Positions 1 to 60,088 of a stretch of 64,000 nt of DNA are shown piece by piece (positions within the stretch are counted from its first letter, which is position 1; every line of letters begins with the position of its first letter). The notes under the pieces are model-generated. The model ran no database searches. It worked only from the letters and a program-made list of their open reading frames with translations, and was not told where the DNA came from. The translations under genes were made by a program, and so were the position numbers. Source of the DNA: Nannocystis pusilla (GTDB lineage Bacteria; Myxococcota_A; Polyangia; Nannocystales; Nannocystaceae); the NCBI RefSeq assembly GCF_049337375.1, contig NZ_JBMPIV010000015.1. The stretch is one strand, 5' to 3'.

Positions 1-422
1 AGGGCCAGGCGCGCACGCTCGAGCGCCTGCTGCGGCGCGCGCAGGTGCGGCCCGACGAGGTCGACTTCGTCTGCGCTCACGCGACCAGCACGCCGCTCGG
101 CGACCTGTCCGAGCTCAACGCGATCCGCAAGGTCTTCGGCGACCACGCGAAGAAGCTCAAGATCAACGCGCCGAAGTCGATGCTCGGCCACACCTGCTGG
201 TCGGCGCCGGCGGTCGAGACCGTGGCCGCGATGCTGCAGATGCGCGGCGGTGTGCTCCACCCGTCGATCAACATCGACGAGCTCGACCCCGAGGTCGACG
301 TCGACGTGTGCGCCAACAAGGCGGTCGAACACCGCATCAACCTGATGGTCAAGAACTCGTTCGGCTTCGGCGGCCTCAATTGCTGCGCGCTGTACCGCCG
401 GTGGGACCCGAACAGCCTGTGA
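1..422 (+). CDS. beta-ketoacyl synthase (KS), C-terminal fragment, 5'-partial
   Basis: The translation ends ...NSFGFGGLNCCALYRRW, typical of the FabF/KS C-terminal fold. The ORF runs off the window start. It is followed by a KR, HMGS, two ECH and an ACP. Confidence 0.75.
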   Translation, partial: GQARTLERLLRRAQVRPDEVDFVCAHATSTPLGDLSELNAIRKVFGDHAKKLKINAPKSMLGHTCWSAPAVETVAAMLQMRGGVLHPSINIDELDPEVDVDVCANKAVEHRINLMVKNSFGFGGLNCCALYRRWDPNSL

Positions 423-430
423 GCCGCGCC

Positions 431-1174
431 ATGAACTTCTTCGTCACCGGAGGCTCGCGGGGCATCGGCGCCGGCATCGTGCTCGAGGCGGTGCGCGCCG
501 GCCACGACGTCGCGTTCGCGTACCGCAGCAACGACGACGCGGCGCGCAAGATCGAGGCCGAGGCGGCGGCGATCCGCCCGGGCGCGAAGGTCAAGGGCTA
601 CGCGCTCGACGTGAGCCGCTCGGACCGCGTCGGCGAGGTCGCGGACGCGGTGCTCGAGGACTTCGACAGCGTCGAGGTGATCGTCAACTGCGCCGGCATC
701 AACCGCGCCAACCTCGTGGTCTCGATGTCCGACGAGGAGTGGCACGACGTGCTAGCGACCAACCTGCACGGCCCGTTCTACGTCGTGCGCGCGTTCCTGC
801 CGGCGATGCTGGCGGCGCGGTTCGGGCGGATCGTCAACATCTCGTCGATCCAGCACAACGGCGCGGCCGGCCAGGCCAACTACGCCGCCAGCAAGGCCGG
901 CCTGCACGGCTTCACCCAGGCGCTCGCCAAGGAGTACGGGCGCAAGGGCATCACCGCCAACGTCGTCGTGCCGGGCTTCTTCGACACCGACATGACGCGC
1001 GAGACCATGCCGCAGGCGGCCAAGGACTACTGGCAGCAGTACTGCCCGATGCCGAAGGGGCGCATGGGCACGCTGGCCGAGCTGGCGGCGACGGTCCTGT
1101 TTTTGGCCACGGGCGGCAGCTTCATCAACGGTCAGGTCGTGCCGGTCACGGGCGGCCTCGACTGGACATACTGA
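431..1174 (+). CDS. fabG: 3-oxoacyl-ACP reductase (SDR, FabG-like ketoreductase)
   Basis: TGGSRGIG Rossmann motif, NAG, and the S...YAASKAG catalytic motif (YxxxK). ATG at 431 lies 8 nt after the KS stop. Confidence 0.85.
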   Translation: MNFFVTGGSRGIGAGIVLEAVRAGHDVAFAYRSNDDAARKIEAEAAAIRPGAKVKGYALDVSRSDRVGEVADAVLEDFDSVEVIVNCAGINRANLVVSMSDEEWHDVLATNLHGPFYVVRAFLPAMLAARFGRIVNISSIQHNGAAGQANYAASKAGLHGFTQALAKEYGRKGITANVVVPGFFDTDMTRETMPQAAKDYWQQYCPMPKGRMGTLAELAATVLFLATGGSFINGQVVPVTGGLDWTY

Positions 1175-1188
1175 GAGGGAGGACGGCG

Positions 1189-2430
1189 ATGGCGCACCAC
1201 CGGCCGCGCGTGGGCATCGAGCGGATCACGGCGTACCCGTGCACGCTCTCGCTCGACATGAAGCTGCTCGCGGAGGCGCGCGATCACGATCCGCGCCACC
1301 CGCTCGAGGAGCTGTGGGTCAGCGAGCGCTCGCTCAACCCGACGTGGGAGGATCCGGTGACGATGGCGGTCAACGCCGCGCTGCAGATCGTCCGGCCCGA
1401 GGACCGCAAGGACATCGAGCTCGTGATCGTCGGCACCGAGTCGTCGGTCGACTTCGGCAAGCCGATCTCGACCTACGTGCAGCGCTACTGCGGGCTCACG
1501 GCCAACTGCCGCAACTTCGAGACCAAGCACGCCTGCTACGGCGGCACCGGCGGTCTGATGATGGCGGCCCACTGGGTCGCGTCGGGGGCGGCGCCGGGCA
1601 AGAAGGCGCTGGTGGTCTGCACCGATCAGAGCCGCGTGCACCTCGGCCAGCCGTGGGAGTACGTGCTCGGCGCGGCCGCGACGGCGATGCTGGTCAGCGC
1701 CCAGCCCGACGTCCTCGAGCTCGACCTCGACACCTGCGGCTACTGGACGCAGGAGATCTTCGACACCTACCGCCCGACCTCGACGAAGGAGGTGGGCCAC
1801 GCCGACACCAGCCTGTACGGCTACCTCGACGCGCTCGAGGGCGCCTACGACCACTTCGTCGCCCGCTCGGGCATGGTCGACTACGACGCCGAGTTCGCGC
1901 GCCACATCTACCACGTGCCGTTCGGCGGCATGACCTTCCGCGCCCACCGGGCGCTGCTCCGCCGCGGCCCGCACGAGATGTCGCTGCGCGAGGCCAGGGC
2001 CCACTTCGAGCGCAAGTCGAAGCAGGCGCTGCGCTACAACTCGCGCTTCGGCGGCACCTACACCTCGGCGACCTTCATCGCCATGCTCGGCCTCATCGAC
2101 GCCGACCCCGAGCTGCGCGCCGGCGACAAGGTCTCGATCTTCTCCTACGGCTCGGGCTCGTGCGCCGAGTTCTACCGCGCGACCGTGGGCGAGCGCGCGC
2201 GCGAGCAGGTCGCCAGCCAGCGCGTCGGCGCCGGCCTCGATCGCCGCATGCCGCTGACCATCGAGGAGTACGAGGCGCTCGAGCGCCAGCGCGCCGCCTT
2301 CATCGACCAGAGCGACTACGAGGTCGACCAGTCGGGCCTGCGCGGGCTCTACGAGCGCGCGTACGCCGGCAAGGGTCGCCTCGTGCTCGACGCCGTGCGC
2401 GGCTTCCAGCGGGAGTACCGCCTGTCCTGA
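1189..2430 (+). CDS. HMG-CoA synthase-like beta-branching enzyme (PksG/TaC/MupH family)
   Basis: HMGS fold motifs: ...GTESSVDFGKP..., Cys in CRNFETKHACYGGT, and HVPFGGM. Start re-derived at ATG 1189 (MAHHRPRVGIERITAY) rather than the ORF-track 739. Confidence 0.88.
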   Translation: MAHHRPRVGIERITAYPCTLSLDMKLLAEARDHDPRHPLEELWVSERSLNPTWEDPVTMAVNAALQIVRPEDRKDIELVIVGTESSVDFGKPISTYVQRYCGLTANCRNFETKHACYGGTGGLMMAAHWVASGAAPGKKALVVCTDQSRVHLGQPWEYVLGAAATAMLVSAQPDVLELDLDTCGYWTQEIFDTYRPTSTKEVGHADTSLYGYLDALEGAYDHFVARSGMVDYDAEFARHIYHVPFGGMTFRAHRALLRRGPHEMSLREARAHFERKSKQALRYNSRFGGTYTSATFIAMLGLIDADPELRAGDKVSIFSYGSGSCAEFYRATVGERAREQVASQRVGAGLDRRMPLTIEEYEALERQRAAFIDQSDYEVDQSGLRGLYERAYAGKGRLVLDAVRGFQREYRLS

Positions 2431-2538
2431 GGCTCCGACCATGCCGCGCCTGTCCTTCGCCACGCCGGCCGCGCCGCCCCTCGGCGTCGTGCGGCCCGGC
2501 CGCTCGTTTCATCGTCTCAGCATTTCGGAGGTGATCGC

Positions 2539-3294
2539 GTGCGCGTCCGCTGCGAAGAGGGCGAGCTAGTTCATCGGCTGTTCCTCGGGACAGGTCCCGG
2601 AGAACATGTCGCATTGGACACCGACGGGATCGCCGCGCTGGCCGAGGCGGTCGAGCAGGCGGTCGCCGGTCCGGCGCGCGCGCTGGTGATCGCCAGCGAG
2701 GGCCCCGAGTTCTGCGCCGGCATGGACCTCGCGGCGGCGCTGCGGACCCCGTCGGCGCAGATGCGCGAGGCCATGCAGCGCTTCGCCGGCTGTCTCGAGC
2801 TGCTGGCGAGCGCGAAGCTGGCGACGATCGCGGTGGTCACGGGCGCGGCCAGCGGCGGCGGGGTCGGCCTGGCGGCCGCGTGCGACCTGGTGGTGGCGGC
2901 GTCGGCGGCCACGTTCGCGCTGCCGGAGCTGCGCTACGGGCTGGTGCCGGCGGTGATCTTCCCGGCGCTCGAGGCCCGGATCGGCGCGCGGCGGACCCGG
3001 CGGCTGGCGCTGACCGGCGAGCTGGTGACCGCGGCCCAGGCCGAGCCGTGGGGCCTCGTCGACGTGGTCGCGGACGACCCGGACAAGGCGCTGCGCGGCC
3101 TCTTGCGCTCGCTGCTGCGCGCGCGCCCGCAGGCGGTGGCGACGCTCAAGCGGATCACCGGGCCGTCGGGGCAGGGCGGGGTGGCCCAGACCGCGGCCGA
3201 CCTCGAGGACCCCGAGCTGCGGGCGGCGCTGGCGGCCCTGCTGGCCGAGGGGCAGGCGCCGCCGTGGTTCGCCAGGCTGAAAGGACAGGAATGA
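2539..3294 (+). CDS. enoyl-CoA hydratase-like ECH1 (PksH/TaX-type dehydratase of the HMGS cassette)
   Basis: Crotonase fold: CAGMDL, ...VVTGAASGGGVGLAAACDLVVA. GGAGG lies 7 nt upstream of GTG 2539. Confidence 0.8.
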   Translation: MRVRCEEGELVHRLFLGTGPGEHVALDTDGIAALAEAVEQAVAGPARALVIASEGPEFCAGMDLAAALRTPSAQMREAMQRFAGCLELLASAKLATIAVVTGAASGGGVGLAAACDLVVAASAATFALPELRYGLVPAVIFPALEARIGARRTRRLALTGELVTAAQAEPWGLVDVVADDPDKALRGLLRSLLRARPQAVATLKRITGPSGQGGVAQTAADLEDPELRAALAALLAEGQAPPWFARLKGQE

Positions 3295-4067
3295 ACGCGC
3301 ATGTCCAAACAGACAGCCTCGTCGAGGTGACGCTCGAGCGCGACGGCGTGGCCGTGCTGACCATGCGCGACGCCGCCGGCAAGAACGCGTTCGGCCGGGC
3401 GTTCGTCGCCGTGCTGACGCGCGCGCTCGAGGACCTCGGCCGGCGCGCCGACGTCCGCGTGGTCGTGATCGCCGGCCTGCCCGAGGTGTTCTCCGCCGGC
3501 GGCGACCGCGACGTCCTGCTCGGCCTCGCCGACGGCACGATCGCCCCGTACGACCTGCTGCTGACGCGGGCGCTGCTCGAGGTGCCGGTGCCGACGATCG
3601 CCGCGATGGCGGGGCCCGCGGTCGGCGGCGGCCTGGTGTTCGGCCTCGCCTGCGACATGGTCGTGATGGCCCGCGAGAGCCGCTACGGCGCCAATTTCAT
3701 GGACCTCGGCTTCACGCCGGGGATGGGCGCGACGCGCCTCGTGCAGTTCGCGTTCGGCGAGTACGTCGGGGCCGAGATGCTGTACGGCTCGCAGTACTTC
3801 CGCGGCGAGCAGCTGGCGGGGCGCGGCCAGGTCAACGCGGTCGTGCCGCGCGCCGAGGTGCTGCCGCGGGCGCTCGACCTGGCGGCGCGGATCGCCGACA
3901 AGCCGCGGGCTGCGCTGCTGTTGCTCAAACGTGCGCTGGCGTTGCCGCGGCGACGGGCCTTCGAGGAGGCGCGCACGGTCGAGTCGATGATGCACGAGGT
4001 ATGCTTCGCCGACCCGGAGACGGTGGCGCGGATCCGCACGAACTACGGGCCAGGCCAGGGAGGATGA
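3291..4067 (+). CDS. enoyl-CoA hydratase-like ECH2 (PksI/TaY-type decarboxylase of the HMGS cassette)
   Basis: Crotonase fold (AGKNAFG..., AMAGPAVGGGLVFGLACD). ATGA start/stop overlap with ECH1. Confidence 0.8.
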   Translation: MNAHVQTDSLVEVTLERDGVAVLTMRDAAGKNAFGRAFVAVLTRALEDLGRRADVRVVVIAGLPEVFSAGGDRDVLLGLADGTIAPYDLLLTRALLEVPVPTIAAMAGPAVGGGLVFGLACDMVVMARESRYGANFMDLGFTPGMGATRLVQFAFGEYVGAEMLYGSQYFRGEQLAGRGQVNAVVPRAEVLPRALDLAARIADKPRAALLLLKRALALPRRRAFEEARTVESMMHEVCFADPETVARIRTNYGPGQGG

Positions 4068-4070
4068 CGC

Positions 4071-4886
4071 TTGCTCAATGACTTCAAGGACAGGGTCGTC
4101 TTGATCACGGGCGGGACGCGCGGCATCGGCCTCGCGTGCGCGCTCGCGTTCGGGCGCCAGGGCGCGCGCACGGTGCTGACGCACCGCTGGGGCTCGGCCG
4201 ACGAGGACGCGCTGAAGGCCCGCTTTATCGCCGCCGGGGCCCCGGCGCCGCTGGTGATCGAGGCCGACGCGTCGCGCGAGGAGGACACCGACAAGCTGAC
4301 CGCGCGGCTCAAGGAGGAGTGCGACGGCGTGTGGGCGTTCATCAGCAACGTCTGCGTGGTCCAGCGCGGCGAAGGGCCGGAGAAGCACACCCGGCGCGCG
4401 CTGTACAAGAGCCTCGAGTACTCGAGCTGGCCGTTCGTCGGCTACCTGCAGGCGCTGCACGCCGCGTTCGGTCGCTACCCCCGCTACGCGCTGGCGATGT
4501 CGTCCGACGGGCCCGACACGCACTACCCCGGCTACGACTACGTGGCGGTGGCCAAGGCGGTGCTGGAGACGTTCGTGCGCTACATGAGCACGCACCTCTA
4601 CGAGCACGGCTGCATCGTCAACGCCCTGCGCACCCGCCAGGTGATGACCGAGAGCTACGAGCAGATGTTCGCCGCCCAGCAGCGCGAGCTGGCGAGCAAG
4701 TTCCCCGAGTTCGCGTGCACGGTCGACGAGGTCGCCGACACGACCCTCGCGCTGTGCAGCGGGCTGTTCGACGCGATGGGCGGGCAAGTGCTGACGCTCG
4801 ACCGCGGCGCGGCGTTCGTCGACAACGTCGCCACGCTCGGGCCGCGGCTCGTCGGCGGCAGCGACAAGGAAGGAGCTCCGGCGTGA
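4071..4886 (+). CDS. FabI/FabL-family (SDR) enoyl-ACP reductase, copy 1
   Basis: TGGTRGIGLA Gly motif. Tyr-x6-Lys (YDYVAVAK) followed by VRYMS, as in FabI (YNVMGLAK...VRYMA). Rare TTG start with GGAGGA 6 nt upstream. Confidence 0.65.
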   Translation: MLNDFKDRVVLITGGTRGIGLACALAFGRQGARTVLTHRWGSADEDALKARFIAAGAPAPLVIEADASREEDTDKLTARLKEECDGVWAFISNVCVVQRGEGPEKHTRRALYKSLEYSSWPFVGYLQALHAAFGRYPRYALAMSSDGPDTHYPGYDYVAVAKAVLETFVRYMSTHLYEHGCIVNALRTRQVMTESYEQMFAAQQRELASKFPEFACTVDEVADTTLALCSGLFDAMGGQVLTLDRGAAFVDNVATLGPRLVGGSDKEGAPA

Positions 4887-5698
4887 TCCTCCGCAACGAC
4901 CTCAAGGGCAAGGCCGTCATCGTCACCGGCGGGACGGCGGGCATCGGCCTGGCGACCGGCCTGCTGTTCGGCAAGTACGGCGCGCACGTGTACCTGACGC
5001 ACCGCTGGGGCTCGGCCGACGAGGACGAGCTGCGGGCCCGCTTCGACGCCGCGGGCGCGCCGGCGCCGACGATCGTCGAGGCCGACGCGTCGCAGGACGA
5101 GGACACCGAGGCGCTGATGGAGGCGGTCAAGCGCGACCACGACGCCGTGTTCGCGCTGATCAGCAACGTGTCGTTCGCCCACGTCAGCAAGTCGCACGAG
5201 GACCTCGACAAGAAGAGCTTCCTGCGCAGCCTCGGCTACAGCGCGTGGCCGTTCGTCGGCTACCTGCAGGCCATCCGCGAGACCTTCGGCCGCTGGCCCC
5301 GTTACGCGGTGGGAATGTCGTCGCGCGGGCCCGAGTACTTCCTCCCGGGCTACGACTTCGTGGCCGCGAGCAAGACCGTGATGGAGACCTTCTGTCGCTA
5401 CCTCACGGCAGATCTGCTCAGTGAGGATGTTCGCATCAACATCCTGCGCGCGAACCCGGTCGAGACTGCATCGCTGGAGGCCACGTTCGGGCCCGACTTC
5501 GTGCCGTTCTGCAAGAAGTACTACTCGGAAGGCTGGTTCATCGACCCCGACGAGGTCGCGGCCGCGGCGCTGGCCCTCTGCAGCGGCCTCATGGACGGCG
5601 TCAAGGGGCAGATTCTGCTACTGGACAGGGGCCTCGGTTTCGCCGACAACGTCGTTCGCCTGTTTTCGGCGCGCGAGCGCCACGGGCTGAGTTTTTGA
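4883..5698 (+). CDS. FabI/FabL-family (SDR) enoyl-ACP reductase, copy 2 (tandem paralog)
   Basis: Paralog of the previous CDS (TGGTAGIGLA; HRWGSADEDE; YDFVAASK). GTGA start/stop overlap. AAGGAAGGAG RBS. Confidence 0.65.
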   Translation: MILRNDLKGKAVIVTGGTAGIGLATGLLFGKYGAHVYLTHRWGSADEDELRARFDAAGAPAPTIVEADASQDEDTEALMEAVKRDHDAVFALISNVSFAHVSKSHEDLDKKSFLRSLGYSAWPFVGYLQAIRETFGRWPRYAVGMSSRGPEYFLPGYDFVAASKTVMETFCRYLTADLLSEDVRINILRANPVETASLEATFGPDFVPFCKKYYSEGWFIDPDEVAAAALALCSGLMDGVKGQILLLDRGLGFADNVVRLFSARERHGLSF

Positions 5699-5761
5699 CC
5701 TTCGCTTCCTGCGAGATTCGCTGCGGGCAACCTGCACCGCGCCCACCAAGGAGAACCGAGA

Positions 5762-6028
5762 ATGAGCACCCGCGATGATGTCTTGGCCGTCGTCAAGCGC
5801 CACCTCGTGGACACCGTCGAAGGGATCGATGCGGCCCAGGTCGACCCCGCCAAGTCGATGAAGGACCTCGGGGCCAACAGCCTCGACATCGTCGAGGTCG
5901 TCTCCTGCAGCATGCGCGAGCTCAAGGTGAAGATCCCCCGCGCCGAGCTCAACAAGCTGACGAACATCAACGAGCTCGTCGACCTGCTGCACAAGACGGT
6001 GCAAGAGAAGCAGGCCGCCGCGTCCTGA
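5762..6028 (+). CDS. acyl carrier protein (free-standing ACP, likely donor ACP of the HMGS cassette)
   Basis: 88 aa with LGANSLDIVEVV (DSL phosphopantetheine-attachment Ser). Confidence 0.85.
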   Translation: MSTRDDVLAVVKRHLVDTVEGIDAAQVDPAKSMKDLGANSLDIVEVVSCSMRELKVKIPRAELNKLTNINELVDLLHKTVQEKQAAAS

Positions 6029-6179
6029 GCGCCGCCGGCGTGTGTCCCCGCGGACAGGGTCCCGGGGACATGACCGATCGGCCAGACACGTTCGCGCCCG
6101 CGCTGCGCTCGCCGCAGCCCGGGCGCGCTCGTCGTACCGGGACCTCGCGCGCGGGAACTCGCGCCTCTTGGCGCGCGAA

Positions 6180-6600
6180 CCGAGCGAAGCGCGTGGGCTT
6201 CGCCTGGCTTTGGGTTCAATGTGGCCAAGGTCGGACGGCAACCAGCGCTGCGGCAAGGCGATCCCCGGCCTTCCAGGCCGATGCGGGTTCGATCGCTGCG
6301 GCTGGCAGGCCAGCTTCGGCGCACCGTCAGACCTGGCCTTCAAGGCCGATGCGGGCTCGATCGCAGGCCGGCGCTTTGGCGCGCCGTCACGCCTGGCCTT
6401 AGGGTCATGGCGAAATCAGGGCGGGGCAGCGCCGCGGCGAGATGATGCACCTGGCCTTCGGGCCAGGTGCGCGGCTCAGGTAAGCCCGTGCTTCACGGCG
6501 CGGTCTCCTCTGGTTCGCAGCTCCCGAGGCGTCTGTCCTTTGAGCCAGGTACGTGACGCATGCGGGCCTCGGCGTGGCTTGCGGCTCAGGCGGGCGGCAG
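6180..6600. repeat. cluster of >=5 imperfect ~60-70-bp direct repeats, each containing a GGCCTTCnAGGCC / CTGGCCTTCGGGCCAG-type hairpin
   Basis: Seen directly: cctggccttcaaggccgatgcggg..., ccggccttccaggccgatgcggg..., cctggccttagggtcatggcg, ctggccttcgggccaggtgcgcggctcagg. The region is non-coding, between the ACP stop and a convergent gene. Confidence 0.6.
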
Positions 6601-8380: not shown

Positions 8381-9310
8381 TCAGCGGCCCTTCAGCGCGG
8401 CGATGAGGCGCGGCTGGAGCTCGGGGATGATGACGAACACCCAGCCCAGCTGCGCCTTGACGCCGTCGACGAGGATCGCCCAGCGGTGGCGCTCGTCGAG
8501 CTCGATGACGAAGATCAGGAGGCCGTTGTCGCCCTCGATGATGAACTTGTTGATGCCCTTGGCGAGGGCGTCCTCCGAGCGGGTCAGCGCGTTGTGCAGC
8601 TGCTCGGACAGGCGGTTGAACATGGCGCACGCCTTGGGCGCCGAGTTGATGCCCGCGAGCGACATGCCCGAGGCCTTGCTGATGATGTCGACGCTGATGA
8701 GGCCGCCCATGAGGTGGTCGTCGAGCTCCTCGAGGATGGCCTTCACGACCTTGAGGTCCATGTCTGACAGCTCCTTGTCGCGCGCTGCAACGTTGGGGGC
8801 GGCCGCGTAGGCCGGCGTCGGTGGGGTGATGGGCAGCGGCGGAAGTGGCGGGACGGTGACCGGCGCAGCTCGCTGCGGCTTCTCGATCACCGGCACCGGC
8901 GGAGGGGAGGGCGGCGTCGCGGTGCGTGGCGGCGGCTCGCTGCGCGGCGGCGGCTCGCTGCGCGGCGGCTCGCTGCGCGGCGGGGGCTCGTTGCGCGAAG
9001 CCTCGTCGCGCTGACGGGCCCGGTCCATCAACAACGCGACGATCGAGGTGTGTCGCACCGTCTGCGGGCAGTTCTCGGGCAACTGCGAAGACGAGACGCT
9101 CCCCTCGCGCCAGTCGAGGATCGTGTTGACGGCGTCGTCACCCTGGGCCGCGCCGGTCTCGGCGTGGACGAGGTTGCCGCCCTGGAAAAACATCGCGCCG
9201 ACGCCATGCGGCGACTCGACGGACAGCTTGATCGACATGCGCGACGTCTGCGCAAGTTGCAGGATGTCCCAAAGTTCAAATCCACCGATCTGGGCGATCG
9301 TGGTTGCCAT
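8381..9310 (-). CDS. DUF4388 (N-terminal) - Pro-rich linker - Roadblock/LC7 (C-terminal) fusion protein
   Basis: N-term FELWDILQLAQTSRMSIKLSVE...GAMFFQGGNLVHAETG (DUF4388-like). EPPPRSEPPRSEPPPRSEPPPR repeats. C-term LKVVKAILEELDDHLMGGLISVDIISKASGMSLAGINS (Roadblock-like). ATG 9310 has a GGGGAGG RBS. Confidence 0.65.
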   Translation of the reverse strand: MATTIAQIGGFELWDILQLAQTSRMSIKLSVESPHGVGAMFFQGGNLVHAETGAAQGDDAVNTILDWREGSVSSSQLPENCPQTVRHTSIVALLMDRARQRDEASRNEPPPRSEPPRSEPPPRSEPPPRTATPPSPPPVPVIEKPQRAAPVTVPPLPPLPITPPTPAYAAAPNVAARDKELSDMDLKVVKAILEELDDHLMGGLISVDIISKASGMSLAGINSAPKACAMFNRLSEQLHNALTRSEDALAKGINKFIIEGDNGLLIFVIELDERHRWAILVDGVKAQLGWVFVIIPELQPRLIAALKGR

Positions 9311-13476: not shown

Positions 13477-14175
13477 TCACTGCAGGGCCACGATCCGCCA
13501 TCCCTGAGGAGTCTGCTCGAGCGTCAGGGCGCGCCCGGGCTCGTAGCGCAGGATCGCGCGTTCCATCCCCGGCGTGAACTCAATTGCCCCAGGTTGCTTC
13601 AGGAGTTGCTCCAGAAGGTCGGCCCGGCGGTTCCAGTCGTCGCGGAGGCGCGAAGAGAGATCGTCTGCGAGTAGCGCGGAAAGCGCGCCGAGATCGGCCC
13701 GCCGGACGGCCGTCAAAAAGGCCCGAATCGCGCTGGCCGGGGTCGAGAGGTCCGGCAAGCCCGGCAGGCCGGTCACGACCTGGTAATGACCGCCGACCTG
13801 CACCCAGGCGAGGACGGCGCCGTCGTGGATGGTCTCGCCGCCCCGCATCGGCGTCTTGAGCGCCGGAGGCAGCGTGTCGAGCGCGGCCCTGGCCGCCGAG
13901 CGCTCGGCTGCCTGCGCTTTCCAGCGCGCCGTGAACGCCTCCTTCGAGGTCGCGGCGCGCAGCTCCGGGCTGAGCAGAGCGTACGCAGCGGCCGGATCGT
14001 CGGCGGCCAGAGCGCGCGCATAGGCGTCGCGCAACGCTTCAGGGCTGCGCGCGCCGCCACCGCCGCGACAGGCCAGCAGCAACAGACCGGCGAGCAACAA
14101 GGATGAGCGGCGACGTACGGGCCGCCGAATGCCGGGTGCGCGGAGCGTGGGCAAGGCTCGATGGATTCCTGTCAC
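13477..14175 (-). CDS. lipoprotein, hypothetical
   Basis: Signal peptide with lipobox LLLLAC. Confidence 0.5.
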   Translation of the reverse strand: MTGIHRALPTLRAPGIRRPVRRRSSLLLAGLLLLACRGGGGARSPEALRDAYARALAADDPAAAYALLSPELRAATSKEAFTARWKAQAAERSAARAALDTLPPALKTPMRGGETIHDGAVLAWVQVGGHYQVVTGLPGLPDLSTPASAIRAFLTAVRRADLGALSALLADDLSSRLRDDWNRRADLLEQLLKQPGAIEFTPGMERAILRYEPGRALTLEQTPQGWRIVALQ

Positions 14176-14190
14176 AAAGGCCAGGTCGGC

Positions 14191-15804
14191 TCAGGCCTTG
14201 GGCCCGCTGCGCTTGTCGAGGATGATGTCGTGCGCGTACTCGTCGCGCGTGGTCGGGTAGTCGATCGTGTAGTGGAGGCCGCGCGACTCCTTGCGCTGGC
14301 GGGCGCACTCGATGATGAGGCTGCCGACCAGAGAGATGTTGCGCAGCTCGAGCACGTCGCGGGTGACGCGGAATTTCCAGTAGTACTCGAGAATCTCCTC
14401 GCGGATGAGGTCGAGCCGCCGCCGCCCGCGCTCGAGCCGCTTGTCCGAGCGGACGATGCCGACGAAGTTCCACATGGCGGCGCGCACCTCTTCCCAGTTG
14501 GCCGAGACCATGACTGCCTCGTCCGACTCGCGCGCGGCGCCCTCGTTCCACGGGCTGACGTGGTCGGGCGGGCCGCGGCCGAAGTCGTCGCAGGCCTGGG
14601 CGGCGCCGTCGGCGAGGACGACCGCCTCGAGCAGACTGTTGGAGGCCAGGCGGCAGGCGCCGTGGAGGCCGCTCATCGCGACCTCGCCGATCGCCATCAG
14701 CCCGGGGACGTCGGTGCGGCCGTGGCGATCGACGACGATGCCGCCGCACATGTAGTGGGCCGCGGGGACCACGGGGATCGGGTCCTTGCGCATGTCGATG
14801 CCGACCGACATGCAGCGGGCGTGGATCGCCGGGAAGCGGCTGACCACGTAGTCCGGATCGAGGTGCGTCATGTCGAGGAACACGCAGCGCTCGCCCGACC
14901 GCTTGAGCTCGGCGTCGATCTCGCGGGCGACCACGTCGCGCGGGGCGAGCGAGCCCATCGGGTGCCGCTCGGCCATGAGGTCGCTGCCGTCGGCCCGCCG
15001 CAGGATGCCGCCCTCGCCGCGCAGCGCCTCGGAGATCAAGAAGGTGTTGGCGTCGGGGTGGTGCAGGCAGGTCGGGTGGAACTGCATGAACTCGAGGTTG
15101 CCGACCGAGGCGCCGATCCGGTAGGCGACCGCGACGCCGTCGGCGGTGGCGACCGCCGGGTTGGTCGTATAGCGGTAGACGCGGCCGGCCCCGCCGGTGG
15201 CGAGGACCGTGATCGGGGCGACGAATGCCTCGACCCGGTCGGCGGCGTTGTTGAGCGCATACACGCCGAAGCAGCCGCGGCTGCCGTCGACCTTGGTCCA
15301 GCTCAGGAGGTCGATGACGGTGTGGTGCTCGTGGATCGTGATGTTCGGGTGGGCGTGCGCGGCCGCCAGCAGGGCGCGCTCGATCTCGTAGCCGGTGGTG
15401 TCGCGGTGATGCACGACGCGGCGGCGCGAGTGGCCGCCCTCCCGCCCGAGCTCGAAGGGGGCGTGCTCGTCGCCGCCGACGCGATCGAAGTGGACGCCGT
15501 AGCGCTCGGCCAGGCGCCGCACGAGGGTGGGCCCGCGCTGGACGGCGTAGGTGACCATGTCACGGTTGCACAGGCCGGCGCCGACGGTCAGCGTGTCCTC
15601 GATGTGCTCCTCGAGCGAGTCGTCGCCCGCGAACACGGCCGAGATCCCGCCCTGGGCCCAGCGGGTGTTGCTCGACTCGGCGCGGTGCTTGGTGAGGATC
15701 ACCACCGGCCCGCGATCCGCGACCTCGAGGGCGAAGTAGAGGCCCGCGAGCCCGCTGCCGAGCACGAGGTAGCGCGCGTGGTGGATCGGCGTGCTGGCAA
15801 TCAT
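14191..15804 (-). CDS. nadB: L-aspartate oxidase
   Basis: FAD-binding LVLGSGLAGL. Flavoprotein motifs throughout (RSxRGLHY-like ...KESRGLHYT). Start re-derived at MIASTPIHH (ATG 15804), dropping a 112-aa Arg/Pro-rich extension. Confidence 0.9.
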   Translation of the reverse strand: MIASTPIHHARYLVLGSGLAGLYFALEVADRGPVVILTKHRAESSNTRWAQGGISAVFAGDDSLEEHIEDTLTVGAGLCNRDMVTYAVQRGPTLVRRLAERYGVHFDRVGGDEHAPFELGREGGHSRRRVVHHRDTTGYEIERALLAAAHAHPNITIHEHHTVIDLLSWTKVDGSRGCFGVYALNNAADRVEAFVAPITVLATGGAGRVYRYTTNPAVATADGVAVAYRIGASVGNLEFMQFHPTCLHHPDANTFLISEALRGEGGILRRADGSDLMAERHPMGSLAPRDVVAREIDAELKRSGERCVFLDMTHLDPDYVVSRFPAIHARCMSVGIDMRKDPIPVVPAAHYMCGGIVVDRHGRTDVPGLMAIGEVAMSGLHGACRLASNSLLEAVVLADGAAQACDDFGRGPPDHVSPWNEGAARESDEAVMVSANWEEVRAAMWNFVGIVRSDKRLERGRRRLDLIREEILEYYWKFRVTRDVLELRNISLVGSLIIECARQRKESRGLHYTIDYPTTRDEYAHDIILDKRSGPKA

Positions 15805-24377: not shown

Positions 24378-24432
24378 GGGACATGTCTGTCGCGACATGT
24401 CCGCCGCGACATGTCCTTCAGGACTCGCGGAA
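24372..24432. repeat. GGACATGTCC-family palindromic repeat array (3 units)
   Basis: gagggacatgtctgtcgcgacatgtccgccgcgacatgtccttcaggac. Confidence 0.75.
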
Positions 24433-25329
24433 GCTGACCATGACGGCGTGGGCGTCGTGCTTGTGCTCGAAGTTGGTGGCGCGGCGGAAGGCGGTGGCGT
24501 CGACGACGATCGGGTGCTTGATGTGGGCGACGGCGCCGGGCGGCAGGTAGGGCAGGCCGAAGCGGCCGGCGCTGTACTTGAAGAGCGGCTCGGGGATCGG
24601 GATCGGCTGGCGCCCGGTGCCGCGGGCCAGCGTCGACAGCGGGACGGGCGGCGGACCGGCGACGTTGTAGATCCCGCTCAGCTGGTGATCGACGGCGCGC
24701 ACGATCGCCTCGACGCCGTCCTCGTCGTGCATGAAGTGGTAGAGCGGATCGAAGCCGAGGATCGTCGGCACCCGCGGGCCCGCCAGGAAGCTGGCGAGGG
24801 TGCCGCGGTGGGTCGGGCCGAGCATGTAGACCATGCGCAGGACGGCGGTCTTGAGCCCGGGCCAGCGCCACAGCGCGGCGGCGGCGAACAGGTCGGCGGC
24901 GACCAGGTCGGCCAGTTCGGGGAAGGTCGAGACGGCCAGCGGCGGCTCCTCCTCGGTGCGGTACAGCGGCGCGTCGGGGGCGGCGCCGTAGATGGTGTGG
25001 CGGCCGACGAACACGGCCTGCTTGACGCCGAACTCGTGGCAGTACTCGAACACGAGGCGGGTGCCGTGGAGGTTGATGCGCAGCCGCTCCTCGGCGCTGG
25101 CGGTGAAGTGGGTGATCGTCGCCATGTGGATGACGACGTCGGGCCGGTGCTGGCGGAACACGTCGGCGGCCGGCCGCTTACGCACGTCGGTCTGGAACAC
25201 GTGCACGCCCTCGGGCGCGTCGGGCCAGGGGCGGCGGTCGATGCCGAGGATCTCGTCGCCGCGGGCGCGCAGGCGCAGGGCGACCATGCGCGCGTGGGCG
25301 CCGTTGATGCCGGTGATCAGGATCTTCAT
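24418..25329 (-). CDS. NAD-dependent epimerase/dehydratase family protein
   Basis: MKILITGINGAHARMVALRL Rossmann N-terminus. Confidence 0.75.
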   Translation of the reverse strand: MKILITGINGAHARMVALRLRARGDEILGIDRRPWPDAPEGVHVFQTDVRKRPAADVFRQHRPDVVIHMATITHFTASAEERLRINLHGTRLVFEYCHEFGVKQAVFVGRHTIYGAAPDAPLYRTEEEPPLAVSTFPELADLVAADLFAAAALWRWPGLKTAVLRMVYMLGPTHRGTLASFLAGPRVPTILGFDPLYHFMHDEDGVEAIVRAVDHQLSGIYNVAGPPPVPLSTLARGTGRQPIPIPEPLFKYSAGRFGLPYLPPGAVAHIKHPIVVDATAFRRATNFEHKHDAHAVMVSFRES

Positions 25330-26246
25330 GGTTCGGAGTCGGAGTCGGACGGGCCGGAGGTCGAGGAGGGCGCGGCGGAGGACGAGCCGGACGAGCTGTC
25401 CTCGGGTTCCTGTGCGAAAGTTCCGTCGGTGCGCTGGCGGTGGAGCGCGCAGCCGCGGAGGACCAGCAGCTCGACGACGCTCTTGACCTGCTCGACGTAG
25501 CCCTCGATGACCTCGTCGGGCTCGCGGCCGGTGCCGGGGAAGTGCATCGGCTTGCCGTAGTGGATCTCGCAGCCGAGCGGCAGCGGGAACGGGACGAGGT
25601 ACGGCGGGACCGGCCAGTAAGGCGCGCCGACGATCTTGGCCAGCGTCTTGGCGTGGTAGATGGTGGGGAGGGCTTCCTCGCCGCCGATGAAGGCGAAGGG
25701 GACGATCGGGGCGCCGGTCTGCAGGGCGATCCGCATGAAGCCGGTGCCGAACTGGACCAGGCGGTAGCGATCCTTGAAGAGCTTGCCGGTGCCGCGCGCA
25801 CCCTCGGGGAAGATCATGAGCAGGCGGCCGTCCTGCAGCAGCCGCAAGGCGTGCTCGGGCAGGCCGGGGAGCTGACCGACGCGCGAGAACCACTCGGACA
25901 CGAAGGGCCAGTTGCCGGCGAACTTCTCGACCATGCCGGTGGCGTGGCGCGGGAGGTCGCGGGCGAAGAACAACGATGCGAGCACCATGCCGCCGTCGAC
26001 CGGCAGACCGCCGGAGTGGTTGCCGACGAGCATCGCGCCGCCGCGCTCCGGCACGTTGTCGATGCCGAAGCACTTCACCCGGAAGTAATTCTTGTAGAAG
26101 ACCTCGAGCATCGAATAGAAGACGCCGAGGTGCTTCTTGGAGATCCCGAACGGATCCATCCCGTATTGATTGAACGGTAGCTCGAGACGTTCGAGGCGGT
26201 CCCGGACGTCGCGGCTGGTGAGAGTCTCGAGGCGGAACGGTCCCAT
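25326..26246 (-). CDS. lysophospholipid/1-acylglycerol-3-phosphate acyltransferase family protein
   Basis: VGNHSGGLPVDG (HX4D-like) and FPEG motifs. ATGA overlap with the downstream epimerase. Confidence 0.65.
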   Translation of the reverse strand: MGPFRLETLTSRDVRDRLERLELPFNQYGMDPFGISKKHLGVFYSMLEVFYKNYFRVKCFGIDNVPERGGAMLVGNHSGGLPVDGGMVLASLFFARDLPRHATGMVEKFAGNWPFVSEWFSRVGQLPGLPEHALRLLQDGRLLMIFPEGARGTGKLFKDRYRLVQFGTGFMRIALQTGAPIVPFAFIGGEEALPTIYHAKTLAKIVGAPYWPVPPYLVPFPLPLGCEIHYGKPMHFPGTGREPDEVIEGYVEQVKSVVELLVLRGCALHRQRTDGTFAQEPEDSSSGSSSAAPSSTSGPSDSDSEP

Positions 26247-47567: not shown

Positions 47568-47840
47568 GGCCTGCTTTCGGGCTCCTTTCGCCGGGCTCGC
47601 CGCGCCGCGTCATGGTTTTCGGACCATGTCTCAAGATGCAGTCCGTCGCACACGCGACCTGCGCAGTGGCCCGCGGTCCGGTAACGCCGCTGGGTGGTCT
47701 TTGAGACAGAGGCCGACGGGGCCTGCGCCAGGCTACGCGGCGCGTTTCCGCGCGAGGGCTGAGATAATCTTCTCGGCCACGATCGGGTGCGCATCAGCTT
47801 GCCAAGGCGGATCCCCTGTGTGACCTTCAGTCTGCGGCGC

Positions 47841-48935
47841 ATGCTCTACGAGGACCGCTACAAGCTGATTTTGGCCGCGTGCCAGGACATTCGCCGGCAT
47901 CGCGAGCAGGTCGCCAAGACGGTGATAGCGAGCCAGCTCCTCGACGCCCTCGACGTCGATGTCCCGAGCGACGCGCTGTTGTCCCACATCGTCGCCGAGT
48001 CGCTGTTGCGACGGATCGACCGCAACCTGCTGTCGGGGCGGAACTTGTACCTGCAAGCCGAGAAGCGGCCGCAGATCGACCTGTTCACGCTGCTGCAGCG
48101 GGCGATCCCGGCGGTGCCGCAGGGCTACGCGCTGGCCAACCAGTACCTCGTGCACGCGATGCGGCAGTCGAGCACGCCGGCGCTGCTCGAGATCGGGATC
48201 GGCAAGGGCCTGCAGATCGTCGCGCTGCTGCGGGCGCTCGCGCGCGACCCCGGCAAGATCGAGCGCCTCCGCGTGATCGCGCTCGAGCCGAACCGCACGG
48301 CCCTGAACGAGGGCGTGGCCGCGATCGACGAGGTCCGCGCCGAGCTGCCGTTCGACATCGAGATCTATCCGCTGGTCAAGCTGATCGAGGTCTGCGAGGA
48401 TGCCGACTACGCGCACTTCGAGGCGCTCGCCGAGGGGAGCTTGTCGATCAACGCGGCCTACACGCTGCACCACACCACGGGGCCCGACAGCGACGCGCGC
48501 ACCCGGCTGCTGCGGCGGCTGCGGGCCCTGCGGCCGCGGGTGTTCACGCTGGTGGAGCCGAGCTCGGACCACGACACCGAGCACCTCACCCGGCGCATGC
48601 ACCACTGTTGGCAGCACTTCGCCACGGTGTTCGATCTGGTCGACCGCAGCGACGCGTCCCCCGACGAGAAGTTCGCCATCAAGGAGGGCTTCTTCGGCCG
48701 CGAGGTCCGCGACATCCTCGGCACCAGCGACGCCTTCCGCACCGAGCGCCACGAGACGCTCGAGTCGTGGCTGCTGCGGCTGAAGAAGTCGGGCTTCGTG
48801 CCGTACCCGGCGATCGACCTCGACGTCGACCTGCCCGAGTACTGCCGCTCCTCGGTCAGCTCCGGGCTCGTGCGCCTGTCGTACCGCGGCGTGCCGATCA
48901 TCGCGGTGTTCGCGTTCGCAGGGGAGGCGGGATGA
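47841..48935 (+). CDS. bacterial GRAS-domain protein (Rossmann-fold methyltransferase-like)
   Basis: The C-terminal FRTERHETLESWLLRLKKSGFVPYP matches the GRAS RVER/SAW region (ERHETL.QWR.R...AGF.P). An alternative GTG start lies at 47787. Confidence 0.6.
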   Translation: MLYEDRYKLILAACQDIRRHREQVAKTVIASQLLDALDVDVPSDALLSHIVAESLLRRIDRNLLSGRNLYLQAEKRPQIDLFTLLQRAIPAVPQGYALANQYLVHAMRQSSTPALLEIGIGKGLQIVALLRALARDPGKIERLRVIALEPNRTALNEGVAAIDEVRAELPFDIEIYPLVKLIEVCEDADYAHFEALAEGSLSINAAYTLHHTTGPDSDARTRLLRRLRALRPRVFTLVEPSSDHDTEHLTRRMHHCWQHFATVFDLVDRSDASPDEKFAIKEGFFGREVRDILGTSDAFRTERHETLESWLLRLKKSGFVPYPAIDLDVDLPEYCRSSVSSGLVRLSYRGVPIIAVFAFAGEAG

Positions 48936-56820: not shown

Positions 56821-59800
56821 TCAGGCCGGGTGACGCTCGAGCCAGGCGTCGACCTCGGCCTGGTAGTGCTTCGCCCCTGCCTTTCGGAACAGGGTCTGCG
56901 CCGAGACAGCGAGGGAGCGTGCCTGTGCGCGATCTCCGCGAGAGCTCCAGAGGACCTGTGCGAGCTGGAATTCGGCCTGGGCGCGCTGGATGGGGGCGTT
57001 GCGCGGGTCGAGCAAGGAAATGCTGCGCTCGAGATCGCGGCGGGCGTCGTCGAGGCGACCTTGCGACTGCCGCACCCTGGCGCGAGGGGTCAGGACCTCG
57101 GACATCCACAGCGAGTCGCCGCCGTAGTTGCGCTCGATCGCCGCGACGGCGGCGTCGGCCTCGCGCTCGGCCGCCGACAGGTCGCCGAGGCCCGCGAGCG
57201 CGACCCCCCGGATCGCCCGACTGACGGCGGTATAGAGGTTGTCCTCGCCGAGCACCGAGGCGGACAGGGGCAGGGCCTTGTCGGTGTGGTCGCGGGCGGC
57301 GGCGTAGTTGTCGCGGGCGAGCTCGATCTGCGCCAGGGCGAGGTGGGCCAGGACGATGCCCTGGGGGTCGGGGCTCTGCGCGGCGCTCCAGATGGCGAGC
57401 GCGCGGGTGGCGTGTTGCTCGGCCAGCCCGAGCTCGCCGCGCACCTGCTGGACCGAGGCGAGGCGCTCGAGCATGGCGGCGACGCGGGTGCTCAGCGGGC
57501 CGAAGTTGTGCTCCCAGATCGCCCGCGCCTCCTCGTAGGCGTCGAGGGCCGCGCCGAAGTCGCCGCGCTGGGCGGCGATGTCGGCCAGCGCCGACAGCGG
57601 GTAGGCGAGCCGCTCGTGGCGCGGGGGCAGGGCGGCGCGCAGGATCGTCAGGGCGGCGCGCTGGTGCTGCTCGGCGGTGTCGAAGTCGCCGCGCAGGGTG
57701 GCGACGTTGCCGAGGTCGGCCAGCGAGAAGGCGTTGCTCGGGTGACCCTCGCCGTAAATGTCGCGGCGCAGGGCCAGGAGGTCCTCGAAGATGATCTGCG
57801 CCGGCTCGAGCTGACCGAGGCTGAGGTGGACGTTGGCGAGGTTCTGGCGCGTGGTGACGGCGGCGATCGAGCGCTCGGGCAGGTCGGCCAGCGAGCGGCG
57901 GTAGTGGTCGATGGCGGTGGCGTACTCGCGGCGGGCCTCGGCGATCTGGCCGCGACGGAACTCGAGGTCGCCGCCGAGGCGAGGCGGGCGACCGAGGCGC
58001 TCATGGAGGGCCTCGGCGTGGCGCAGCCACGGCTGGGCGTCGTCGGGGTGGCCGAGCGTCTGCGCCAGGCGGCCGGCGAAGCCGCTGGCTGTCTCGAAGG
58101 CCAGGCGGTCGTGGCCGGCGGCGAGCGCCTCCCAGTAGGCGTCGCCGTAGACGCGGACGCCGTCGTCGTACTTGCTGGCGACGAACAGCTGCTCGGCGAG
58201 CTGCGCCAGCACCTCGGCGCGCAGCGGGCGGTAGCCGAGGTCGCGCGAGCGCTGCTCGGCGGCCTCGAGCAGGTTGAGGCCGGCGCCGGGGTGGCCGGCC
58301 GCTGCCTCGGCGCTGGCGCGCGAGAGCTGGCCGCGCAGCTCCTGGACGGCCTCGGCGAGGGCGGGCGCGGGCGGGGCGACGTCGGCGCGGAGGGCGTCGA
58401 GGTCGGCGCAGCGGGCCGGGGACGGCAAGGCCTCGACGGCGTCGTGGGCGTGCGCGACGGCGTCGGCGTCGGCCCCGGCGAGCACGCCGAGCAGGGCGTC
58501 GAGCTCGTGGCGGCGATCCTCGAGGCAGTGCATGCGCCTGTCCAAAAGGTCATGTGATTGCTCGCCGCGGATGTTGGCCGCGGCGCACGCGTCGGTGTGG
58601 CCGGCGATCCACGCCTCGGCCCAGGCGTCGACGCGCGCGCCGGCGCGAGCGGCCGCGTCGGGGGCGTAGGGCAGGCCGGTGGCCGCGAAGGCGGCGTCGA
58701 GGGCGGCGCGGCGCTCGGGGTTCCACGTCGGCGCGAGCGCCTCGGCGGCCCCGGTGCACAGCGCGGGCGCTTCGCCAGCGAGGGCGAAGGCGACGGCGCC
58801 GGCGACGAGCAGCGCGCCGCCGCCGGCGAGGGCCCAACGCCTGCGGTCGCGCCGCAGCGGCCGCTCGAGCGCGTCGAGCAGCGCCTGCATCGACGGCCAC
58901 CTGTCCCCGGGTTCAGCCGAGAGGCCGCGCAGGATGGCGCGGTGGATCGCCGGCGGGACCTTGGCGGGGCGCCGCGGCGGATCGACGCGACCGCGGGCCT
59001 TGGCCGCCTCGAGCGCGAACAGGTTGTCGCCGCTGAACGGACGGTTGCCGTACAGGCCCTCGTAGAGGGCGACGCAGAAGCTGAACTGATCGGCGCGCTC
59101 GTCGATCGCGGCGCCGCCCCGCTGCTCCGGGGCCATGTAGGCCGGCGTGCCGACGAGGGTGCCCACGCGGGTGAGCGGGCCGGACACGAGCGAGGAGGAC
59201 AGCGGATCGATCGGGGCGTGGGGGTCGGGCGAGCCGGCGGCGCTCGTCGGCTCGACCTCGCCGGCGGGGCGCGCCAGGCCGAAGTCGAACACGCAGATCC
59301 GACCTGTCTCTCCGACCAGGACGTTGCCGGGCTTGAAGTCGCGGTGGATGATGCCGACGGCGTGCGCGGCGACCAGGCCGCGGCCGGCGGCGAGGAACAC
59401 GTCGAGGACCTCGCGCACGCCGCGGACGCGGTCGTCGAGCCACTGGGCGAGGGTGATGCCGGGGACGTACTCCATCACCAGGAACACGCCGGCGGCCTGC
59501 GGCATCCTGTCCTTCGGGACAGGCTCCGTCCGGTGCGGACCGATCCGCATGGTGGTGAGGGCGTCGGCGTCGTAGCTGCCGACGTCGTGGACCGCGACGA
59601 CGTTGCCGTGCGACAGCCGGGCCAGCGCCTGGGCCTCGCGCAGCAGGCGAGCGTGGGCGGCCTGGGCGGGGCCGTCGCCGGGGGCCACGCGCAGCAGCTT
59701 GATCGCGACCTTGCGATCGAGGCTGGGATCGTAGGCGAGGTAGACGACACCCATGCCGCCGGCGCCGAGGCGACGCATGAGGACGTAACGGGTGAGCTGG

Positions 59801-60000: not shown

Positions 60001-60088
60001 CTGCGGGTCCAGGCTAACCCGACGGTGCAGCGCTGTCGTGTCGGGCTTGAGGCGCAATGCCGCGCGCCTGTATCATCCCGCCGATCGC

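Follow-up and report, generated by a model that had tools for sequence, protein, structure and literature searches.

A beta-branching cassette within a discrete-enzyme synthase operon of Nannocystis, probably serving a sphingolipid-type pathway

A 64,000-nucleotide stretch of the Nannocystis pusilla genome (contig NZ_JBMPIV010000015.1 of assembly GCF_049337375.1), referred to here as the window, opens with genes for a 3-hydroxy-3-methylglutaryl (HMG) synthase (HMGS) and two enoyl-CoA hydratase-like proteins (ECH1 and ECH2), the core of a polyketide beta-branching cassette. Positions 1-6028 are the predicted distal two-thirds of a self-contained 11-gene operon, which runs in the order alpha-oxoamine synthase (AOS), acyltransferase (AT), dehydratase (DH), ketosynthase (KS), ketoreductase (KR), HMGS, ECH1, ECH2, two enoyl reductases (ER1 and ER2), and acyl carrier protein (ACP). 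The window takes in the final third of KS and the seven genes after it. The operon very likely specifies a self-contained type II synthase in which the HMGS cassette feeds the AOS. Its product is probably of the sphingolipid type, that is, a methyl-branched, saturated acyl-ACP that would be condensed by the AOS with an amino acid to give a branched long-chain base.

HMGS beta-branching cassettes are known as accessories of modular polyketide synthases (PKSs), and bacterial sphingolipid synthesis is known to use ready-made fatty acids. A full-text literature search, of incomplete coverage, returned no description of the operon, nor of an HMGS cassette linked to AOS or sphingolipid genes.

The G+C content of the window is approximately 71%, and raw lists of open reading frames (ORFs) are consequently crowded with shadow ORFs. 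Gene borders were therefore set from a third-position GC frame plot together with inspection of start codons and ribosome-binding sites. Coding on the + strand is unbroken from base 3 to base 6028, and the frame switches at the expected gene borders in the plot of GC by codon position. Eight co-directional genes occupy this region:

3-422, + strand: C-terminal 139 aa of KS, a discrete FabF/PksF-like ketosynthase cut by the window start (Ketoacyl-synt_C, 1.7e-26)
431-1174, + strand: KR, a FabG-like 3-ketoacyl-ACP reductase of 247 aa (TIGR01830, 239 bits; adh_short, 7e-51)
1189-2430, + strand: HMGS, HMG-ACP-synthase-type, 413 aa (HMG_CoA_synt_N/C; best PDB matches CurD and PksG)
2539-3294, + strand: ECH1, a crotonase-fold protein of 251 aa in the dehydratase position of the cassette (GTG start; ECH_1, 2e-31)
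3291-4067, + strand: ECH2, a predicted PksI/CurF-type decarboxylase of 258 aa (NF005496, 274 bits; ECH_1)
4071-4886, + strand: ER1, a divergent short-chain dehydrogenase/reductase (SDR) and putative enoyl-ACP reductase of 271 aa (TTG start; adh_short_C2, 2.6e-26)
4883-5698, + strand: ER2, a paralog of ER1 and putative enoyl-ACP reductase of 271 aa (GTG start; adh_short_C2, 8.8e-32)
5762-6028, + strand: ACP, discrete, 88 aa, the last gene of the operon (PP-binding, 2.3e-9)

The successive junctions from KS to ACP measure +8, +14, +108, -4, +3, -4, and +63 nt, the two 4-nt overlaps falling at ECH1/ECH2 and ER1/ER2. Each domain call is backed by Pfam and NCBIfam searches. Gene calls and domain searches agree with an earlier note on this DNA, which had described eight co-directional genes with short or overlapping junctions and the ACP in last place. 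Catalytic residues are kept in all of the orthologs recovered, indicating that these are functional genes and not chance ORFs.

The same note expected the remainder of an assembly line to lie upstream of the window, and here near-identical genomes tell a different story. BLAST gives 98% identity between the window DNA and that of three genomes (N. pusilla Na p29, a second N. pusilla assembly, and Nannocystis sp. RBIL2), falling to 94-96% for N. exedens, N. punicea, and N. bainbridge. In the ~98%-identical genomes, the only synthase genes 5' of the window are the rest of KS (436 aa in full; L002, 7921-9231), a 184-aa FabZ/ApeI-like DH, a 336-aa FabD-like AT, and a 418-aa AOS, which is the first gene of the operon. 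Beyond the AOS lie divergently transcribed genes for an extended SDR (here called Epim), a UDPGP-family protein, and PGI. The L002 sequence differs from the window by indels, so the two are not co-linear base for base. In one N. pusilla assembly (L001, GCA_049060185.1; e.g. 5079-5633, 8678-9235, and 13692-14572), AOS, KS, and ER2 are split into fragments. These splits are most likely assembly frameshifts rather than pseudogenes, the genes being intact in four other Nannocystis genomes, and the upstream context was for this reason taken from L002, L003, L004, and L017.

A search of the 64 kb window and of the flanks of 31 related loci, out to 10 kb or the contig end, turned up no modular PKS or nonribosomal peptide synthetase (NRPS) genes. 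The rest of the window likewise contains nothing resembling a KS, AT, AOS, or adenylating enzyme, and no thioesterase occurs in or beside the operon. With no thioesterase, modular PKS, or NRPS at hand, the AOS is the only candidate for the off-loading enzyme. Its leader contains no riboswitch or other Rfam family.

The character of the cassette can be judged from its three branching enzymes. Among proteins of solved structure, HMGS is nearest to CurD (273 bits) and PksG (238 bits), both aligned over its full length. The Myxococcus xanthus MvaS scores a small margin below PksG (228 bits) and is aligned over residues 3-366 only, while the MvaS enzymes of Staphylococcus aureus and Enterococcus faecalis reach ~184 bits. 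The last ~45 residues of HMGS align to CurD and PksG, but not to the MvaS enzymes. The top named NCBIfam model is prokaryotic HMG-CoA synthase, at 256 bits, under its cutoff of 360. The Glu/Cys/His triad is kept in 31 of 31 sequences. A look-up by exact sequence returned no match for the window HMGS, with which one Nannocystis pusilla protein shares 99% identity. HMGS is therefore classified here, from sequence, as the polyketide (ACP-dependent) type and not as a mevalonate-pathway MvaS.

ECH2 passes the NCBIfam model for PksI-type proteins, NF005496 (274 bits, cutoff 215). Its structural matches are PksI (158 bits) and CurF (141 bits), the structure ranked after these reaching 86 bits, and it lacks the crotonase catalytic Glu. 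The predicted assignment of ECH2 as PksI/CurF-type is unambiguous. ECH1 appears to be weakly PksH-like, though it stands in the right position in the cassette. Its best NCBIfam model (PRK07112) gives 121 bits, under the cutoff of 250, and its structural matches are generic crotonases, with PksH at just 66 bits. ECH1 is also the least conserved gene of the operon, with 32-46% identity in distant loci; its ‘PE’ catalytic Glu is kept in all 29 orthologs. The earlier identification of a polyketide-type cassette is borne out by HMGS and ECH2, and the beta-branching cassette, as predicted, is genuine.

The remaining enzymes form a reductive synthase. The full-length KS ortholog scores 359 bits with PRK07103 (PksF-like) and 328 bits with fabF, both under the NCBIfam cutoffs. 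A decarboxylating Cys-to-Ser substitution had been suggested as a point to check. The Cys-His-His triad (GGACAS, HATSTP, and GHTCW) is instead retained in 27 of 27 orthologs, indicating a condensing enzyme and not a decarboxylating KS of the Cys-to-Ser type (KS0). In KR, the Y-x3-K motif is kept in all 30 orthologs, and the TIGR01830 score of 239 bits compares with a cutoff of 298. The phosphopantetheine Ser of the ACP, in the motif GANSLD, is present in 23 of 23 orthologs. The best NCBIfam model for the ACP is PRK07117 (61 bits, cutoff 79). The ACP sequence contains no Trp, the residue reported by Haines et al. in 2013 to flag beta-branching acceptor ACPs.

ER1 and ER2 are paralogs that are 51% identical to each other. 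Enoyl reductases of the FabI/FabL type have a Y-x6-K spacing, while Y-x3-K is the classical spacing found in ketoreductases. All 39 ER copies examined carry Y-x6-K, and they fall into two old paralog clades, the first of which includes ER1. Scores against the FabL model are 71 bits for ER1 (under cutoff) and 72 bits for ER2, with 55-63 bits for ER2 against FabI models. The structural matches of ER2 are weak (at most 63 bits) and comprise FabI and glucose-dehydrogenase-type SDRs, so that the SDR pair is divergent from everything solved. ER2 is the more conserved copy, at 73-87% identity within Nannocystaceae and 50-59% in distant loci. The two clades and the shared Y-x6-K motif fit two distinct enoyl substrates. 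The ER duplication is retained universally, as would be expected of a pathway with two enoyl substrates of different chemistry to reduce, and a heteromeric enzyme is equally possible. Because the two extra SDRs resemble enoyl reductases, the saturated methyl branch envisaged in the earlier note is a reasonable reading.

None of these proteins qualifies as a housekeeping fatty acid synthase component. All scores with the corresponding equivalog models lie under cutoff (cutoffs in parentheses): fabD 149 (261), fabF 328 (494), fabG 239 (298), fabZ 81 (113), FabL 72 (328), and acyl_carrier 36 (70) bits.

A scan of a genome collection with the window HMGS, followed by tblastn with all operon proteins, gave a set of 31 loci. 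The 11 genes are syntenic in about 30 loci. The operon is present in each Nannocystis species sampled (seven species-level genomes), and the same order occurs in metagenome-assembled genomes (MAGs) of Nannocystaceae and Polyangia, in more distant Myxococcota, in one Pseudomonadota MAG, and in one Eisenbacteria MAG, where the contig is truncated. Two Planctomycetota MAGs and one Kofleriaceae MAG carry the same genes in permuted order, with AOS downstream. AOS is kept with the operon in nearly all complete loci. At the far end of this range, identity is 51-56% for HMGS, 55-65% for KS, and ~64% for AOS, and the catalytic residues of all eleven proteins are conserved. The operon is a selected, mobile functional unit and not a lineage-specific oddity of secondary metabolism.

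A further permuted locus was observed in a dolphin-oral ‘Proteobacteria’ MAG (L026, 5255-9816), which reads AT-KS-KR-ER-ACP-ER, followed further on by HMGS-ECH1-ECH2. An alpha/beta hydrolase (UPF0227) and two further ORFs lie between ER and HMGS in this locus, and DH was not detected.

The AOS belongs to the BioF/Kbl/SPT family, and its pyridoxal-phosphate Lys, in the motif TFSK, is kept in 20 of 20 sequences. Its proposed role is suggested by the genes that surround the operon in different lineages. The five bacterial dihydroceramide genes are spt, acpR, aasR, epi, and the N-acyltransferase gene aca (yghO in E. coli), all of which are carried by E. coli BL21(DE3) (PMC9386255). The yghO-aasR-epi-acpR-spt locus of that strain (L034) was used as the reference for comparison. 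Although the genes flanking the operon vary by lineage, they recur. In four loci (L010, L011, L015, and L036), the ACP is followed by a ~385-389-aa GNAT protein, a second small ACP, and a fatty acyl-AMP ligase (FAAL), making 14 co-directional genes in all in L036. A GNAT gene is divergently adjacent to the operon in L037 and is also adjacent in L018.

The GNAT adjacent to the operon is homologous over its full length to E. coli BL21 YghO (33% identity, E 6.5e-70), and the ligase is homologous to AasR (37% identity over 574 aa, E 8e-124). The AasR-type ligase and second ACP are linked to the GNAT. Over its whole length, the Nannocystis Epim matches E. coli BL21 Epi at 28% identity (E 1.5e-26), and the two give the same NCBIfam profile, with HpnA first and OleD among the next matches. 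Epim adjoins the operon in 13 loci from three lineages, including Planctomycetota and Kofleriaceae. GNAT and Epim share an operon, divergent from the synthase operon, in Nannocystaceae bacterium ST9, whose genome is complete, and a YghO-type GNAT is found in all Nannocystis species. Together with its neighbours, the operon would amount to a split ceramide-type gene set in which the AOS stands in for Spt and nine synthase genes replace the loading of ready-made fatty acids.

Two other proteins in the window are related to Epim by family. A second extended SDR (60086-60775, + strand, within ORF 60146-61114) is 35% identical to the L002 Epim, and another Epimerase-family protein, with a long N-terminal extension, is encoded at 24418-25893 on the - strand.

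The route that these genes could support can be set out step by step, each step being drawn from family membership or established enzyme chemistry. The FabD-like AT would load malonyl onto the ACP, and the Cys-His-His KS would generate acetyl-ACP by decarboxylation before carrying out Claisen condensations. In ordinary cycles, the beta-ketoacyl-ACP would be processed by KR, the FabZ-like DH, and one ER. In one cycle, it would be diverted to the cassette, where HMGS would add C2 of acetate, ECH1 would dehydrate, and ECH2 would decarboxylate to give a 3-methyl-enoyl-ACP. The other FabI-type ER paralog would then saturate this trisubstituted enoyl intermediate. The AOS would catalyse decarboxylative condensation of the branched acyl-ACP with an amino acid, most likely serine, giving a 2-amino-3-keto base and freeing holo-ACP. 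The divergently encoded Epi/CerR-like reductase, Epim, would reduce the 3-keto group. Finally, the YghO/bCerS-like GNAT would N-acylate the base with an acyl group from the second ACP, supplied by the fatty acyl-AMP ligase, yielding a ceramide-type lipid.

In the simplest version of this scheme, branching would occur in the first cycle, leading from acetoacetyl-ACP through HMG-ACP and 3-methylcrotonyl-ACP to isovaleryl-ACP, and hence to an iso-terminal chain made from acetate alone. An iso-terminal branch would be the most economical arrangement, and it is put forward tentatively, with the balance of expectation leaning somewhat the other way. A more elaborate version, in which the cassette is used repeatedly, is not expected. 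HMGS/ECH1/ECH2/ER cycles would then alternate with KR/DH/ER cycles, each type with its own ER, and would introduce several methyl branches. The outcome would be an isoprenoid-like chain built wholly from acetate by fatty-acid-type chemistry and incorporated into a sphingolipid, a prospect that seems decidedly remote.

Several observations weigh against a sphingolipid-type product. On the NCBIfam equivalog models for serine palmitoyltransferase (SPT), the AOS scores 290-299 bits against cutoffs of 500-640, while E. coli BL21 Spt, taken as a control, reaches 599 bits and passes. Among solved structures, SPT (245 bits) and the Thermus BioF/Kbl enzyme (246 bits) match it about equally, CqsA structures reaching 103 bits. 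The distance of the AOS to Thermus BioF/Kbl, Sphingobacterium SPT, and KBL is the same, and the amino-acid substrate of the AOS can therefore not be read from sequence; loop motifs in alignments to the Thermus AOS, Sphingobacterium SPT, and KBL are not decisive for amino-acid specificity. The similarity between Epim and Epi is generic for extended SDRs, and the case for Epim rests on recurrent synteny. The operon ACP has no similarity to AcpR. In Nannocystis, the GNAT-ACP-FAAL genes are unlinked to the operon, and in N. pusilla they have no AOS within 10 kb. In Planctomycetota and Kofleriaceae, the place of the GNAT module beside the operon is taken by an FAD/ALO-type oxidase, SnoaL, and an extra SDR, which hints that the product is not a plain ceramide. 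Lineage-specific tailoring genes of this kind mean that end products may differ between lineages and may in some be specialised metabolites. Lastly, chain length, branch position, the number of branching events, and the separate roles of ER1 and ER2 are all inferred.

The tailoring genes themselves have the following features. An enzyme resembling FAD-linked D-arabinono-1,4-lactone oxidase is encoded in the Planctomycetota and Kofleriaceae loci L024 (15891-17237), L025 (16401-17714), and L032 (12871-15798). In L032 it shares one open frame with Epim and a SnoaL domain, and in L024 and L025 there are, besides, two conserved small proteins without a family match. An additional classical SDR, of ~300 aa, lies beside the operon in four distant loci, L023 (10058-10951), L028 (14613-15419), L024 (4940-5911), and L025 (3098-4075). 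These copies are 41-62% identical to each other, and their weak NCBIfam matches include 3-ketodihydrosphingosine reductase (117 bits, cutoff 400). This SDR may replace Epim as the keto-reductase in the lineages concerned.

Four other explanations of the locus were considered. The operon could make a small or medium-chain branched alpha-aminoketone or alpha-hydroxyketone, serving as a diffusible signal or specialised metabolite (a CqsA/LqsA-type autoinducer, a pyrazine precursor, or an amino-polyketide). The AOS falls in no curated SPT model, is equally near to BioF/Kbl-type enzymes, and matches the CqsA/LqsA-type model NF005526 (199 bits); moreover, the lineage-variable accessory genes (FAD/ALO oxidase, SnoaL, extra SDR, and alpha/beta hydrolase) are typical of specialised metabolism. 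Such a product is nonetheless unlikely, given the far lower score of CqsA than of SPT structures (103 against 245 bits), the repeated adjacency to full-length YghO/bCerS-type, AasR-type, and Epi-type genes, the full KR/DH/ER set, which implies repeated complete reductive cycles, and the retention of the operon in all Nannocystis species sampled. A second possibility is an ACP-dependent counterpart of the aib route, making iso-branched primers or fatty acids from acetate for general lipids, with the AOS as one consumer among several. By established chemistry, HMGS, ECH1, ECH2, and ER acting on acetoacetyl-ACP would be expected to yield isovaleryl-ACP, and among solved structures the M. xanthus MvaS stands fairly near to HMGS (228 bits). 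This is improbable in view of the position of AOS as first gene and its conservation with the operon, the alignment of the HMGS C-terminus with CurD/PksG and not MvaS, and the absence of an acyltransferase or thioesterase able to pass the chain to glycerolipid synthesis; nor do AibA/B/C-type or LiuC-type genes occur in the window or flanks.

The cassette could also act in trans on a modular PKS/NRPS whose genes lie upstream or at another site in the genome. PKS clusters are abundant in Nannocystis genomes, HMGS and ECH2 are of PKS type, and the best NCBIfam models of KS and ACP come from the pksX cassette (PRK07103 and PRK07117, both under cutoff). Such a role is very improbable, and the upstream sequence largely refutes it. 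No modular PKS accompanies any of the 31 related loci within 10 kb (or up to the contig end) or occurs in the 64 kb window, the operon has an AT, a condensing KS, KR, DH, two ERs, and a release enzyme of its own, and the 11-gene synteny spans phyla in which a partner PKS would differ. The ACP also lacks the Trp reported as the flag of acceptor ACPs. Primary mevalonate/HMG-CoA metabolism, finally, would accord with prokaryotic HMG-CoA synthase being the best named model for HMGS, albeit under cutoff. It is ruled out by gene content, leaving it a negligible chance: no HMG-CoA reductase, mevalonate kinase, or lyase gene is present in the window or flanks, whereas the locus has an ACP, a KS, and a PksI-type ECH2, and the nearest solved structures to HMGS are CurD and PksG. 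According to the earlier note, a mevalonate or isovaleryl-CoA pathway would be indicated by an MvaS-like HMGS together with the absence of upstream PKS/NRPS genes. Such genes are indeed absent upstream, but HMGS is not MvaS-like, and the locus is consequently neither the tail of a PKS nor an aib or mevalonate pathway. Apart from these explanations, assignment of the AOS as the biotin enzyme BioF was rejected, as there are no bio genes and decarboxylation by ECH2 takes off the second carboxylate.

The proposed synthase for a branched sphingolipid-type base combines features of several known systems. Like the PKS cassettes of B. subtilis (PksC/AcpK/PksF/G/H/I), curacin (CurB-F), myxovirescin (TaB/C/E/F/K/X/Y), and mupirocin (MupG/H/J/K), it has an HMG-ACP-synthase-type HMGS, ECH1 and ECH2 in the same order, a PksI/CurF-type decarboxylase, and a discrete ACP, AT, and KS, the last with a PksF-type top model. 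In contrast to these cassettes, it has no modular PKS partner, its KS keeps the Cys and there is no KS0, and it adds a type II reductive set (FabG-like KR, FabZ-like DH, and two FabI-type ERs). It also differs in having a single ACP without the acceptor Trp, chain release by an AOS, and an ECH1 that is weakly PksH-like.

Similarly, the ceramide system of Caulobacter crescentus and E. coli BL21(DE3) (Spt, AcpR, AasR, Epi/CerR, and YghO/bCerS) shares with the operon an AOS with a dedicated ACP, and a full-length YghO homolog, an AasR-type ligase with ACP, and an Epi-type SDR recur as neighbours of the operon. In that system, AasR loads a free fatty acid on AcpR, whereas the acyl-ACP of the operon is apparently made de novo by nine dedicated synthase genes, the branching cassette among them. 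Further differences are that the operon AOS lies outside the curated SPT models, that its ACP is unrelated to AcpR, and that the N-acyltransferase, not the AOS, is the partner to which the ligase-ACP pair is linked.

Discrete homologous AT, KS, KR, DH, ER, and ACP proteins are shared with type II fatty acid synthases (FabD, FabF, FabG, FabZ, FabI/FabL, and AcpP). Discrete enzymes are also a feature of specialised systems resembling them, such as the aryl polyene, flexirubin, and cispentacin loci, and the operon DH has an ApeI-like Pfam match. Unlike type II fatty acid synthases, the operon has no FabH-type initiator, all of its proteins fall under the housekeeping equivalog cutoffs, and it has a duplicated ER, the HMGS cassette, and the AOS. 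If acetoacetyl is the unit that is branched, the sequence of intermediates, from an HMG thioester through 3-methylglutaconyl and 3-methylcrotonyl to isovaleryl, would be that of the aib pathway (MvaS, LiuC, AibA/B, and AibC). The operon route would, however, be ACP-bound instead of CoA-bound, and would use a crotonase decarboxylase (ECH2) where the aib pathway has the glutaconate-CoA-transferase-like AibA/B, and an SDR where it has the medium-chain reductase AibC.

Downstream of the ACP, the window carries housekeeping genes, including those for a cobalamin adenosyltransferase, DUF4388, Macro, and CarD proteins, and an L-aspartate-oxidase-like flavoprotein. A scan for terminators and promoters past the ACP gave one weak terminator-like hairpin (6194-6206), no better than in shuffled sequence. 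The segment at 6040-6575 has no clear coding frame, and it alone within the first 11 kb fails to align from strain to strain. At this site, N. pusilla Na p29 (L003) has an insert of ~2.1 kb, and in other Nannocystis strains the site is filled by unrelated sequence of 240-550 bp. A Ser/Thr kinase with TPR repeats is encoded 50 kb from the operon (56821-60000, - strand), and a protein with this architecture is encoded immediately after the FAAL in L036 (13599-16520). This is probably a coincidence, given the abundance of such kinases in myxobacteria. The window also encodes a 382-aa protein (47787-48935, + strand) with a GRAS domain (PF03514, 1.6e-35), a bacterial representative of a family best known from plant transcription regulators.

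If the proposed function is correct, a family of bacteria spanning several lineages, comprising every Nannocystis species sampled, many Myxococcota from sea and soil, some Planctomycetota, and others, would build a branched sphingolipid-type backbone de novo. It would do so with a compact synthase of discrete enzymes that has absorbed a branching cassette, extending beta-branching chemistry to type II systems and to membrane or primary-like lipid metabolism. Methyl-branched long-chain bases would then arise by a route independent of both leucine and S-adenosylmethionine. The 11 genes would represent a small, portable toolbox for branched amino-lipids, and their recognition would sharpen genome-based prediction of which uncultured bacteria make the unusual sphingolipids of environmental lipidomes. 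Directly testable in culturable strains such as N. exedens DSM 71, this combination of genes is unexpected from the perspective of both polyketide and bacterial lipid research.

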